Below are positions 3,401 to 36,400 of a DNA stretch of 64,000 nt, in pieces. The stretch spans positions 20,942,642 through 21,006,641 of the forward strand of contig CP154954.1 of the NCBI GenBank assembly GCA_039621445.1, read 5' to 3'. Origin of the DNA: Euglena gracilis (lineage: Eukaryota). Position 1 is the first letter of the stretch; the number at the start of each line of letters is the position of its first letter. The notes below the pieces were generated by a model, which did no database searches, was not told the DNA's origin, and worked only from the letters and a program-made list of their open reading frames with translations. A program made the translations under genes and the position numbers.

Positions 3401-6400
3401 CTCTGTAAATAGCTTTCAAACCTCCCTGGGGGTGTGTCGGGGGTTCCTGTGGCCGTCGTCCGCAGACTCTGTCGCCCAGCTTCAGGCAAAGGACGCGGAG
3501 GCGAAGGAGCTCCAAGCAATCAATGCAGCGCTGAAATCCGAGGCGCAGTCGCTTCAAGAGGAGGTCAGCCAAAGCTGCCCTTGCACAGCCACCAAGGAAG
3601 CCACGTCCTGTTTCCCTTCTTGGTCGCACCAAAGTATGGTCATGTACATATGGTGCTTCTTTCCCCGAACCACAGCTCTGCCATTTTGTGACGACAACAG
3701 CTGGAACAAAAACGCTGGTGTCGCCACCCCCTGATTCACTGAGACTCACTCACTGAGTGCCCATCGTTGGGCAGATCGGTCACTGTTGACCTCCCCACCC
3801 TGCCTTTTGTCCTCTGGGCATTCTGAGGGTGGCGGTTGCCCCCACCCGCCTGTCGCGCGCACTCGCTGGGTCCCAGGACGACCGAGTCGCCCTCCAGGCG
3901 GACCTGAACGCGCTGGAACGGCAGCTGCGGGAGCTCGGCCAGCGGACCCCTCCGGCCCCTCCCCATGCTTGCCCCGGCTGCCTGTGATCGGTCGAGCAGT
4001 CTTGTTCACGCTTCTTCCAGAACAGGTCAGCAAACACAGCAGCTGTTCCATTGTCCCATGATCCTCAGGTCCCCCAGAGATTGCTGGTCGTAAAACATAG
4101 GAGGGGGGAATAAAAAACTTTTTGGGGGAGTCGGGTTGGGCCCAACAGAAGGGGGTCAACTGTGGGGGGGGGGGGTTCAAATTGGGTCCAACAGCACTTG
4201 ACCGGATCAATACCCGGGGGGGGGGGGGGTTGGTGGCTCTGCCGGAGGAGTTCCTGGCGACGCCCCGGCACCGACGGCCGCCCTCGAGGCGCGGCTGGCG
4301 GCGCTGGCCGCGGAGCGCGACGCGGCGCACGACGCGGCGGCGGCGCTGCAGGCGGAGCGCGAGGAGCTGGCCAGCGCGGTCCGCGTGCTAGAGGGGCAGA
4401 GCGCGACGCTGACCAGCACCAACGCCCCCAGTCCCCTGGCCGCCCGTCCCTACCCCAGTGAGTTTCCCTTTGTGCTCACTAACCTGTTTAAAGACCGCAC
4501 TGACCTGCCTTCGTGGGACTTGTGCCCAACCCTTGTACCTGCTGACCTGTCTCCCAGAATTGTTTTTGCAGATTTTCATTTTTTTTCTTGAAAAGAGTCC
4601 ATTTCCTGCTAACCAGGGTGTAACGTAGAGCTGAGCTCTTTGGCAGACCACCCCGGCCCGGCTGGCGGTCGGCGGCCCGGCGGCCCAGCCCAGCCTGGGC
4701 CGGGGCTGGGGGGTTGAAAAACGCTCATTTTCGGCTCAGAAACACTTTTTCTGGGTCCGGGAGGCCAAAAAACATCGTTTTGGGCAAAAAATTTTTTCGA
4801 TTTTTTTCGACTTTTTTGACCCGAAAATGACCCAAAGTCCATAGGATTTGGCCCCAAAACGGGGGGATGGGGGTCAAAAACGCTCATTTTTGGCCCAAAA
4901 ACACTTTTTTCGGGTCCGGGAGGTCAAAAAACATGGTTTTGGGCAAAAAAAAATTTGCGAATTTTTTTCAACTTTTTGACCCAAAAATGACTAAGTACAC
5001 CGGGAGGAGGGGGTCGGGTCTGAATTTTTTTTTGCGCTCAAAAACACTTTTTTTGGTGTTCAAAAGTGAAAAAAGTGTTTTTGAGCGAAAAAAAAAATTC
5101 AAAATTTTGGGTCCCGACCTGCCACCCCCTTGCCCAGCCGCCCTCGGACCCCCGCAGGGGTCCCCGAATACCCAAAATTGGCCCAAAATCGCACAACCAG
5201 GCCCCGGGAACTTCAAAAAAGGTCAACCCCCCCCCCCTAAGCCTCATGATTGACCCCCTGGTTTGGTCCCAAATCCTCGTTTAGCCTGAGATATGGCCAA
5301 TTTACCGTTTCGGGCCCCGAACAGGCCCGAAATGGCCAAAACTGGCAAAACTGGCCCAAAACCACAAAACGGCCATATCGAGGAGTTGGCCCAAACCGCG
5401 CATATCGATCGATTGGGCGTCCCAAAGTTGTGGAATGAGGTCCTCTTTACTTTTCCTCAACTCCGTGTTTTCGGGATATTTGAAATTTTCGATATTTTGA
5501 CCCCAAAATGACCCTGCGATTTTCCCGGAAAAAAAAACGGTAGATAACTTTTTTGCTCGGGGCATATCTCCGGACTGGCGGGGAGTTGCGGGTGAACTAA
5601 GGGCTCTGGAGAAACTAGAGATCGTCCCCTAACCTATAGGCTATTCACTTTGGGGGCCAGGAAATCCAATCACATCGATAATCCTCGGGAGTCCGGACCT
5701 ACCCAGGGGCGGGGGGGGGAGGCGGGGGGGTCGGACCCCCGTCGCCGGGATGGTAAACTTCGCTCTTACTCTAAAGAGTTAAGAGCTCAGCGACCCCCCC
5801 AAAATTAGACCCCCCCAAAATAAGACCCCCCCCCCAAAATAAGGCCTCCCTGGGCCGATCGAGCAAAAATCCCAAAATAAGACCCCCCAAGAATAGGACC
5901 CCCTGCCTGATGGCGCGAAGTGCCGGGGACGTGACAATTTTCCCTGAAAAATTACCAAAACAATTTCATTCACAAAAATGATGAAATTTCAAAATTTTCA
6001 GATTTTTCAAGTGCAAAAAAAAAGGTAAATGTCAACACACGTGGTAAAGGTCATTAAATGTTTAAATGTTTTAAATATGGCGCGAACCGTGCATACCATG
6101 CAAACATGCAAACGCGCGCGCGTGTGTGTGTGCTGTGGTGACACCGCATCGACGTGATTACGTGCCCCCCGTTCCTCGGAAGATGGATGTACTGGCAGCA
6201 GGGGAGGGGGGCGATTGAGTGGGAAAGAAGAGCAAAAAAAAGCAGGTTTGGCCTTTTTTGGGTTTTTTTTATCCTGCCAGTTTCATCAGCTTCTGAAATG
6301 ATTTCGGCTTAAAACGTTTCGCATTTTGGACCACATTTTCCCCTGCATTTTTGTGATTGCCAAGAAGCCTCAGGCGGACACCAGGTACGTTTGGAATTCG

Positions 6401-33400: not shown

Positions 33401-36400
33401 TGGAGGGCATGCGGGGCATCTATGACCGGCGGATGATGGCCCAGGGCGGCCCTTCTTTGGGGTCTGGCCCCAGTCTTGTTTGCTTTGGGGTGGAACCACG
33501 TTGCCTGCCAGGCGTTCGAACACACTGGTGGTGACTGATATCTTGGTGGGTGTGTTGTGTGTATATGTGTATGTGTGTTGTGTGTTTCATCTGTTTGTTT
33601 CTTGCGGGAGGGGGAAATGATTTCTTTATTTTTCGGACCCGGATTGGTCAAAAAATACCATCCAGGAAACAGACCCCCCAAAAGACCCCCTGAAAGTTTC
33701 CACCTACAGGACCCAGAAAGACGTTCTGATTTTTTTTGTATTGACTTAGCATTTGCTTGGCTGTGGGATTGGGAGACTGGCATCATATTCAGCAAATGCT
33801 CCTGACAACTGAGAACGCGCAATACGTCGTCCGAGACGCTGTAACCCTTCAATTACAGGGTTTCGGGACGCAGGGTAAGGTCAACCTTGATTCGATGCAC
33901 GGTGACATTTTGTTGTTGTTGGTGTCGTCGTCGTCGTCGTCGTCGTTGTCGTGGTCGTGGTCGTGGTCGTTGTCGTTGTCGTTGTTGTTGTCGTTGTCGT
34001 TGTCGTTGTCGTTGTCGTTGTCGTTGTCGTTGTGGTGGTGGTGGTGTTGATGATGTTGTTGTTGTTGTTGTTGTTGTTGTTGTTGTTGTTGTTGTTGTTG
34101 TTGTTGTTGTTGTTGTTGTTGTTGTTGTTGTTGTTGTTGTTGTTGTTGTTGTTGTTGTTGCAGATGTGCTGTGACGTGCCCATTTTGAAGCCCACACAGT
34201 TGGCCGCCGATGCCGGGAGGGCCCTTCTGCCCGGGAGCTGACCAAGAAGTACACGACGGAGCTGCAGGACCTGAAGCAGCAGTTCCTGGCGGCCCGGGAA
34301 GAGAGCCAGCGTCTGGCGCTGGAGCTGGAGAAGAGCGCCATCTCGGGCTATGAGGCCAAGGTGTGCCCGTGGGCCCTCCTGCGGCCACCTGCCTGCGCTC
34401 CTGCACCCATGAAGTTTGGTGTTGACTGTTGGCAAATGAGACGGGCATCATATTTAGTTGGAATTACGTTAATTATTGTATTGCTGGTGGTCATCCCAGT
34501 TGTTCTCTGTCCGCTTTGTTCAATCCTTTATTCTCTCTCTAATGCCCCAAATATGTGCAGTCATGAGTCAGGGGGGGGGGGCAATATCCTCAAATTCTTG
34601 CATTTTCTTTTTTCAGTTATCTGCAAACTTTTCTTACAGTTCTTTGATAATTTTCAGAAAGTTGTCCCCAAGCAGTGGGCTCCCATCAGGCATCTCCATT
34701 TCAAAAATTCATCATCTTCATGTGACGTGTTTTTTTGTATTTCTGGGTATGTGATAAAAGTCCGGAAGCCATGATTTTCATGCTTCTGGTGACCTGCTGG
34801 TTAAATGCCGGGATTTGGTCCAATTTTTTTGAAGAACAAGATGGGAGAAGCACACCCAGGCAAAGGTGTGCCTGAAATGCAAAACAAATTTCTTTCTCAA
34901 CTCCCTCATAAAAATTAGATATTGATGCCGATTTCCCGCAAGTTTGTGAAATTTTCTGAGTTCGCTAAATCTTTCGATCCTATCCCCCCTCTCTGTGCAG
35001 AGACTGTCAGGTTGTCAAGATCAAAAAATGGTGAAATATGGTCCAACCATGTGTATGATTCTGTATATGCATGAATGAACATGAATTACATTCATGGTTG
35101 TCTATAAACATGCATATGGATACGCGAAAATGCGAAAAAATCTTTTATTTTGTGCAAAAACACACACAATAATATCACGGCCGTGCGATGTCAAGAGGCA
35201 CTGCAGACAGCAATCCACGCATGTGCAGTCAAACACGTACCATGAAACATATAGATTGTGGCCATGCAATCACATAGTCACTGGCCGACCCACCCCTCCA
35301 CGGGATGGGTGGATAGTTTTTTTTTAAGAGTGACTGGCCTGCACCCCCTTCCTCCGGGGTGGGTGGCAGAATCATTCAAAATCATTCAGTTGACCCGACG
35401 CCGGATTTTTGGGGGTTCATTTTTTCTTTATTTCTGGGGTGGATCCCCCCCCCCCCCGGGGTGGTTGGGGTACTGACTGGTTTTCCAAAAAAGTGATTGG
35501 CTGGGGTTTTTTTTTTGAGACGTGGAAATAACCCCCTCCCCGGGGTGGGTCGAGAATTGCCCGCCTGCGGCCCATCCCGGCGCCGCCCCTCCCGTGGCCC
35601 GCAGGTGACCCGCCACGGCCTGGACGGGCTGCAGGCGAAGGCGGAGCACGAGGCGGCGCTGCGGCGGCAGGCGGAGGCGGAGTGCGCCCGGCTGCGGACC
35701 CAAGTGGAGCTGTTCACCAAGGCCCTGGAGGACACCCGCAGCCGTCGCAAGGTCCCCCGCCCGTGCCTCCCCTGCCTCCCTGGCGTTGACGTCCCGGCCC
35801 AGAGTTGATTTTTCCCGCGCGAAACCTGCGAGGACAACCCCCCCCCCAAATAGAAGCACGGGTGCGCTTATAGCAGACCGCCTCAGCAGCGGGAGTACGC
35901 TTCTGTTTGGACCCTGCGCTTCTTTGCAGCCCCGCGCTTCTGTTAGAGTTTTATTATATTATACCGTATTATTGTTTATACATACAGTTTACCGTGGGGG
36001 GCAGAATCCTGTGGCATATTCATTGGCATGTTTTGGTGGCGCCACGGCTGGCTGCGACGGTCCTGGCTAGCTTCGGAGCCACCTGCCACGTTCACCACCT
36101 CCACTAACCCCCCCCCCCCCAGCAAAATCTCTTGGTCTCTCTTTTTTGAGGGGGAAACACTTTTAAACTGTTGGATATTTTGCTTGTTGAGGTTGGAGTG
36201 CCCAGGGATTCCCACAAATTCGTGCCACGTATAATCACGAGTAATCACCAACCAGCACGAATTTGGGTATTTTCCAAATCACGAATAATCACGAATAATC
36301 ACAAATAATCATGAATGACAACGAACAACCACAAATAATTATGAATGAAAATTTCTCCCATTCATGAATGTGTCCGAAAATGACCTTTTCGTTAAGGATT

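Follow-up and report, generated by a model that had tools for sequence, protein, structure and literature searches.

Euglena has been known since the 1990s to carry nonconventional (NC) introns (cited in PMC12621601), which are reported to make up 71.8% of the introns of E. agilis (PMC12501133). Their cis code was genetically defined in 2025 by knock-in mutagenesis as 5'-N3CDG-/-CH'GN5-6|R, together with pairing of the stretch that follows CAG with the one preceding CTG (Nomura 2025, PMC12501133). As described there, mutagenesis showed a requirement for CAG/CTG, the 3-nt and 5-6-nt spacers, the purine, and pairing beyond the motif; wholly synthetic 50-nt introns built on the code are spliced, and CGG-CCG and CGG-CTG are working variants (PMC12501133). 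Sequence logos for E. gracilis give CCAGG at +3 to +7 and CCTG at -9 to -6 for these introns, and the consensus for conventional introns of the same species is GTGTG, a C-rich tract, and CAG (Gao 2024, PMC11170887). NC introns are described as being removed later than spliceosomal ones (PMC6221363) and, according to papers citing Guminska 2021, are released as full-length circles. Here, we analyze one gene on the + strand of a 64,000-nt stretch of DNA (the window, whose positions serve as coordinates throughout). The evidence below points, with a probability that we put at about 0.88, to a nuclear euglenid gene, most likely from a Euglena species, that would encode a long coiled-coil protein in about 44 short exons interrupted by at least 26 NC introns.

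An earlier reading of the same DNA (the original prediction) had proposed that more than 30 introns of this gene lack GT-AG, follow the pattern exon|N3-C(A/G)G ... C(T/C)G-N5|exon with complementary intron ends, and are euglenid NC introns. We tested this rule, with an N6 variant for the intron at 25396-26014, on the 23 introns listed there and found it in all 23, exactly where they had been placed. The 5' anchor at +4 to +6 is CAG in 16 and CGG in seven, with the complementary CTG or CCG before the last 5 nt. In the wider terms of the published code, CDG at +4 to +6 and a complementary CH'G at -8 to -6 (or -9 to -7) occur in 23/23 listed introns and in 26/26 introns of a strong set curated in this analysis (stem of at least 9/12, in frame, and placed at the edges of coding cores). 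GT-AG termini are absent from all 23 listed introns, and the strong introns outside that list start with CA, GG, GG, GA, CC, and CC. Column counts over the 23 introns give CCAGG at +3 to +7 and CCTG at -9 to -6. The rule corresponds to the published code element by element, which supports the interpretation as euglenid NC introns.

The motif alone proves little, because no codons are commoner here than CAG and CTG (both are among the most enriched exon codons) and GC-rich DNA yields 59,032 candidate stems; the GC content is 0.49-0.63 across the first 40 kb of the window. We therefore relied on three controls, namely a comparison of own with cross ends, a frame-agnostic spacer test, and the junction context, and together these establish that the signal is real. 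Past the 3-nt anchor, the two ends of the same intron pair at a mean of 6.74/9 positions, against 4.04/9 for 506 mismatched 5'/3' combinations, and the sum of own-end pairing was reached in 0/20,000 permutations. The folding energy of the first plus last 20 nt behaves likewise (mean of -22.05 kcal/mol for own ends and -16.78 kcal/mol for mismatched ends; 0/20,000 permutations). Each intron therefore has a predicted end complementarity of its own, which CAG/CTG codon bias does not account for. In 20 of the 23 introns, 8-10 of the first 10 stem positions are paired (Watson-Crick or GU), with lower values at 15111-15988 and 23999-24213 (7/10 each) and at 32873-33269 (6/10). Extending the 3' spacer to N6 at 25396-26014 proved necessary, the stem there being 12/12 with N6 and 5/10 with N5. 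The CAG/CTG motifs fall in codon phases 0, 1, and 2 in 5, 6, and 12 cases, and this spread over all three phases argues that they are not codon artifacts.

For the spacer test, approximately 45 coding cores were located with a codon log-odds scan whose training set was 32 open islands, and the best terminal stem was determined at each of 44 gaps between cores with the frame ignored. An anchor pair was lacking at a single gap, and the stem reached 9/12 or more at 39 gaps. With the 5' spacer set at 3 nt, the 3' spacer that keeps the frame across these 39 stems is N5 in 26, N6 in six, and N4/7 in seven, where chance would give 13 each; the spacer sum is accordingly 8 or 9 in 32/39. When N5 was imposed and stems were taken up to 12 nt from core ends, 28 strong stems were in frame versus 16 out of frame, compared with 45 versus 107 for weak stems. 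All 23 listed introns connect the independently best-scoring flanking frames, as had been claimed for the joins, and read-through into each of them meets a stop after 15-508 nt.

The junctions themselves have a characteristic context. Downstream exons, which had been said to start nearly always with a purine, do so in 23/23 listed introns (A in six, G in 17) and in 25/26 of the strong set, compared with purine counts of 4, 11, and 10 of 23 at the neighboring positions -1, -2, and +3. A pyrimidine|purine step marks both junctions, with a pyrimidine in 17/23 and a purine in 22/23 at the 5' side, and in 19/23 and 23/23 at the 3' side. The N3 spacer is not random, with G at +1 in 20/23 and C at +3 in 19/23 (G-S-C in most). 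This bias could reflect an extra determinant or the insertion-site signature of an ancestral element.

Our curated tally comprises 26 well-supported NC introns with lengths of 100-2431 nt, about nine conventional-looking introns, and about eight ambiguous ones. The proposed figure of more than 30 NC introns is therefore upheld in part: 26 are strongly supported and, with about eight introns ambiguous, more than 30 are no more than plausible. The strong set consists of 20 of the 23 listed introns and a further six at 3940-4246, 11858-12552, 18464-18563, 21418-23848, 24263-25282 (N6), and 30572-31049 (N6). Terminal-pairing energies computed by the method of Gao 2024 (PMC11170887) average -8.8 kcal/mol for the 26 strong NC introns, none of which is at zero, and -3.7 kcal/mol for the nine conventional-looking introns, three of which are at zero, a contrast that reproduces the published one (PMC11170887).

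Among the strong introns with an N5 spacer, stems of 11/12 are found at 4426-6425 (CAG/CTG, 2000 nt, non-slidable at 0/0), 18464-18563 (only 100 nt long, and new here), 21418-23848 (CGG/CCG, 2431 nt, also new), 27096-27393 (CGG/CTG, non-slidable), and 33439-34234, which contains a (TTG)n array. Stems of 10/12 occur at 9878-10276 (a rival placement at 9896-10285 also scores 10/12), 10390-10903 (non-slidable, with a (TG)129 array inside), 11035-11745 (CGG/CCG, with a nested interspersed repeat), 11858-12552 (CTG/CGG, in frame, and absent from the original list), 14258-14503 (all Watson-Crick), 16153-16363 (CGG/CCG), 17895-18310, 18949-19422, 27568-27983, 29248-29814 (CGG/CCG), and 29933-30446. 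Stems of 9/12 are seen at 3940-4246 (CGG/CTG, in frame; the alternative 3925-4261 pairs at 10/12), 7850-8571 (the best frame-agnostic stem of its gap, with no GT..AG within 15 nt), 8673-9764 (CGG/CCG), 18633-18837 (rival placement 18625-18844, 10/12), 20132-21322, and 23999-24213; the intron at 26104-26605 pairs at 9/10 and has a GT..AG alternative at 26118-26607. The N6 introns are 24263-25282 (10/12; new), 25396-26014 (12/12, containing a (TGC)n array), and 30572-31049 (CGG/CCG, 12/12; new), the last being followed by an exon that begins with C. Three of the listed examples are weak. The intron at 12729-12981 has a stem of 9/10 that includes four GU pairs, a poorly scoring downstream exon (codon score 4.6), and no clear partner intron as far as 14184; the one at 15111-15988 (7/10) is ambiguous, with a conventional alternative at 15124-15977; and the one at 32873-33269 (6/10) has a better-paired alternative at 32897-33275 (10/12).

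The original prediction needs supplementing in one respect, as the same gene also contains about nine conventional-looking introns with a GTG(TG) 5' consensus, a C-rich tract, and CAG. Eight of these nine start with GTG (background 0.43 of GT sites), seven end with CAG, and a C-rich tract is present in most. They look like ordinary spliceosomal Euglena introns and would presumably be used as such. They comprise 3564-3876 (GT...CCCAG), 6577-7224 (GTGCTT...CAAG), 7303-7784 (GTGCAC...GGCAG; the gap's best stem would call for N4/7), 14664-15057, 16468-17246 (GTGGTG, C-rich tract, GCGCAG; or starting at 16471), 17431-17830 (GTGGCG...AGTCAG; NC alternative 17416-17824), 19572-19964 (GTGGGG...CAACAG), 28136-29173 (GTGTGT...CCCTCCCAG; or 28122-29180), and 34361-35604 (GTGTGC, C-rich tract, CCGCAG), which has the highest conventional score. 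Two of these locations are ambiguous: 6577-7224 could instead be an N6 NC intron at 6571-7218 (stem 8/12), and 14664-15057 competes with an N5 NC intron at 14645-15056 (stem 9/12). Ambiguity also attaches to candidate NC introns at 26700-27022 (N6, 9/12), 31175-32326 (N5, CTG/CAG, 8/12), and 32433-32713 (N5, 9/12; alternative 32448-32728).

A further ambiguous intron, at 3151-3470, can be read as NC (CTG/CAG, N5) or as conventional at 3158-3465 (GTGTCG...CCGCAG); both readings keep the frame, and the two are set apart by a few residues. This locus and 26104-26605/26118-26607 carry a GT..AG pair as well as paired CAG/CTG-type ends, as do the intermediate (hybrid) introns described in euglenids (Milanowski 2016, PMC4770533), and the former is a possible hybrid of this kind; either signal may be the one used. 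Hybrid introns are reported to be rare in E. agilis, at 0.8% of all introns (PMC12501133).

From about 3.0 to 35.8 kb, the + strand shows a succession of short open stretches that are rich in Glu, Leu, Gln, Ala, and Arg and resemble coiled coils, and no comparable chain of coding-like stretches was found on the - strand. From the codon scan, dynamic programming (DP) gene models, and N-terminal translation, the whole gene would extend over 2920-35808 and encode approximately 1800 amino acids in its short exons. The putative start lies at one of the first ATG candidates (2920 and 2968-2986) and the putative stop is in frame at 35806. The span of 3937-34234 given in the original prediction is therefore too narrow for a gene running from about 2.9 to 35.8 kb: at least three exons lie upstream (about 2920/2968-3150, 3471-3563, and 3877-3939) and two downstream (34235-34360 and 35605-35805), and a further exon near 37970-38035 is possible. 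The product appears to be a generic long coiled coil. Nine exons and one downstream open reading frame (ORF) gave no Pfam match above cut-offs, and exon 33271-33438 found no match in a homolog search among longer proteins. A phmmer search against 1.84 billion representatives returned no identical protein and two weak coiled-coil matches (29-36% identity), and a search of metagenome contigs for a related locus gave one weak match (58% over 24 residues) that we judged to be due to chance.

One exon departs from an otherwise continuous reading frame. Within 27394-27567, the three-frame view and overlapping cores show that the coiled-coil reading moves to a neighboring frame at 27441-27450 (+ strand), in a GCC-repeat, GCCGCCGCC context. 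The joins proposed around this exon hold insofar as each flanking intron preserves the frame locally, but the enclosed exon lacks a continuous reading, and the switch had gone unnoticed. The simplest reading would be a 1-nt indel, which could be a genuine lesion or an error of assembly. We also considered two micro-introns and regard them as less likely than such an indel: at 27418-27464, CTG would pair with CGG, which is barred by the H (not G) of the code, and at 27430-27461, a pyrimidine follows and there is no room for a loop. It is unlikely, in our estimate, that the switch is genuine in the genome and is resolved at the RNA level outside the published code, for example by a micro-intron of 32-47 nt; if it were, NC splicing would take in smaller introns and other motifs than its present limits allow.

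Several observations weigh against our reading of the gene as one with at least 26 NC introns. Twenty of the 23 listed junctions can slide by 1-4 nt with the mRNA unchanged, as is reported for most published Euglena introns (84.4%; PMC12501133), and the reading frames constrain the spacer sum (8 or 9) and not the 3/5 split, whose support comes solely from the pyrimidine|purine pattern and the downstream purine. A frame-preserving GT..AG pair lies within 15 nt in nine of the 23 listed introns. DP gene models that allow both kinds of intron recover 14/23 of these introns exactly and send others along GT-AG paths; the path scores are 846 for GT-AG only, 883 for NC only, and 973 for both kinds, so that the coding signal alone does not decide between the first two. 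The DP models were set aside as a judge, and were not used to arbitrate the ambiguous introns, since their outcome hangs on arbitrary penalties; they also called a CTG microsatellite an exon (25819-25962). The nearby GT..AG pairs and the existence of a GT-AG-only path, together with the place of CAG and CTG among the most enriched exon codons, would be expected if most of the introns were ordinary spliceosomal GT-AG (or GC-AG) introns with splice sites a few bases away, the motifs and stems being incidental to GC-rich, CAG/CTG-codon-rich DNA. We consider this very unlikely. In the other 14 listed introns, no GT..AG pair that keeps the frame lies within 15 nt, the own-end-specific pairing is beyond the reach of codon bias, and the spacer sum is 8 in 26/39 frame-agnostic best stems. 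Moreover, GT-AG candidates far outnumber the NC candidates, so that a chance GT-AG path is expected, and the GTG(TG) consensus is missing from most of the alternative GT sites.

The remaining points against the NC reading bear on whether the gene is intact and on where it comes from. The frame switch means that, in the assembled sequence, the frame is not intact end to end, and an identical protein is absent from both protein collections searched; with the absence of a Pfam match, these could indicate a decayed or silent pseudogene, whose exon islands would be relics, with the paired ends marking old inverted-repeat insertions that are no longer spliced. Yet some 44 cores remain open and codon-biased over 33 kb with one disruption only, motifs and helices are intact in all 26 strong introns, and one 1-nt indel amid GCC repeats also resembles an assembly error; we hold a pseudogene to be highly improbable. 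An Rfam scan of the window gave no matches (no rRNA, snRNA, or SL-RNA gene), which leaves some room for another euglenozoan as the source, such as a hemistasiid diplonemid. The noncanonical introns of hemistasiids are described as mostly non-GT-AG, with G/C-rich pairing ends that bring the intron ends together as they would here, and the mechanism of their removal is stated not to be known (PMC12621601). However, no fixed CAG/CTG motif with 3- and 5-nt spacers was seen in passages describing those introns (PMC12621601), whereas the exact CAG/CTG positions, the putative 3- and 5-6-nt spacers, and the purine in this gene match the Euglena code, and its conventional-looking introns show the GTG(TG) and C-rich tract of E. 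gracilis. Another euglenozoan source therefore seems extremely unlikely to us.

On the preferred reading as Euglena NC introns, the gene shares with the described introns (PMC12501133, PMC11170887) the identity and positions of the motifs, a spacer sum of 8 or 9 that would fit both spacers, the CGG-CCG and CGG-CTG variants, the purine at the exon start, the helix that follows CAG and precedes CTG, frequently slidable junctions, GT-AG introns coexisting in one gene, and a wide length range. We found no difference of substance from the code, this gene being read from DNA alone; the points of divergence are the biased N3 and the strong intron at 30572-31049, which precedes C. Motifs, spacer sum, purine, intron-specific pairing, and frame continuity are directly visible in this gene. 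That the signature would be necessary and sufficient for splicing, and that the products would be circular, we take from the literature; the gene is presumably transcribed and spliced at exactly these sites.

Splicing of these introns would then begin with the CAG or CGG located 3 nt inside the 5' end and the complementary CTG or CCG located 5 (sometimes 6) nt inside the 3' end, prolonged in each intron by a helix of its own, about 9-12 bp long. This helix may draw both splice sites together in the pre-mRNA, and a probably non-spliceosomal activity may cut at fixed distances from it, between pyrimidine and purine on both sides. The same activity would join the exons and free the intron, the released form reportedly being circular. 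Archaeal and tRNA bulge-helix-bulge introns are also cleaved at fixed distances from a defined helix and give circular intron products; they differ in having their own motif and a known endonuclease. According to the abstract of a 2018 study in PLoS Genet, the conformation of euglenid introns is unlike that of tRNA or self-splicing introns. The original prediction had stated that the excision machinery is not identified, in agreement with the 2025 Discussion (PMC12501133) and a 2024 review.

Inverted-repeat ends are also shared with transposon-derived introns (introners, which are MITE-like with terminal inverted repeats and target-site duplications; reviewed in PMC11282704), and an origin from miniature inverted-repeat transposable elements (MITEs) is a published hypothesis for euglenid NC introns, put forward in the 2025 Discussion (PMC12501133) and a 2024 review. 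Unlike in transposon-derived introns, the intron ends of this gene are not copies of one another, and the repeats that its introns have in common are internal, not terminal. The idea that the introns form one copied family was rejected here, as BLAST of 42 introns against the window revealed internal shared repeats only. Comparison of the last five exon bases plus N3 with N5 plus the first three exon bases likewise gave no significant target-site duplication over these 8 nt (3.31 versus 3.00 matches; 2070/20,000 permutations). Taken together, the window speaks neither for nor against a transposon origin.

The observation made in the original prediction is confirmed and its interpretation supported, and the phenomenon is already known. 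The locus carries little weight as a discovery, and the window makes the question of the removing machinery no more testable. It is a clean worked example in which at least 26 code-following introns stand beside about nine conventional-looking ones in one gene; raw DNA suffices to read the code, and gene finders based on GT-AG would mis-model such genes.

Repeats are common in and around the gene. Microsatellites inside introns include (TG)129 at 10582-10839, (ACAC)110 at 16672-17112, (TGTTGG)27 at 20153-20317, and (CACG)73 at 24949-25235; further intronic arrays are (TGC)106 at 25641-25958, a degenerate TG-rich array at 28543-28811, and (TTG)n at 33910-34160. Their translations (poly-Leu, poly-Val, and Cys-Val repeats) mimic ORFs and thereby misled codon-based exon scoring. 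An interspersed element of approximately 330 nt occurs in three introns (11333-11662, 31594-31929, and 15644-15923); identity is 93-100% for the copies of introns 11035-11745 and 31175-32326 and approximately 70-75% for the third, and the similarity ends short of the intron ends. In a second family (approximately 300-400 nt, 68-79% identity), one copy lies at 948-1339, upstream of the gene, and three are intronic, at 11917-12238, 13708-13975, and 20838-21225. A third, with units of approximately 110-150 nt and 74-86% identity, forms tandem pairs at 4698-4991 (within intron 4426-6425) and 47409-47881 and a single copy at 136-280. The 44-64 kb half of the window is repeat-laden, and no gene was recognized there. 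At 40614-43067, an (ATACT)n satellite of 2.45 kb (approximately 489 copies, 89% matches) accounts for an AT-rich block at 40-44 kb that is strongly skewed to C over G, and a GC-rich 34-nt tandem repeat lies at 45547-45675 (3.8 copies, 94% matches).

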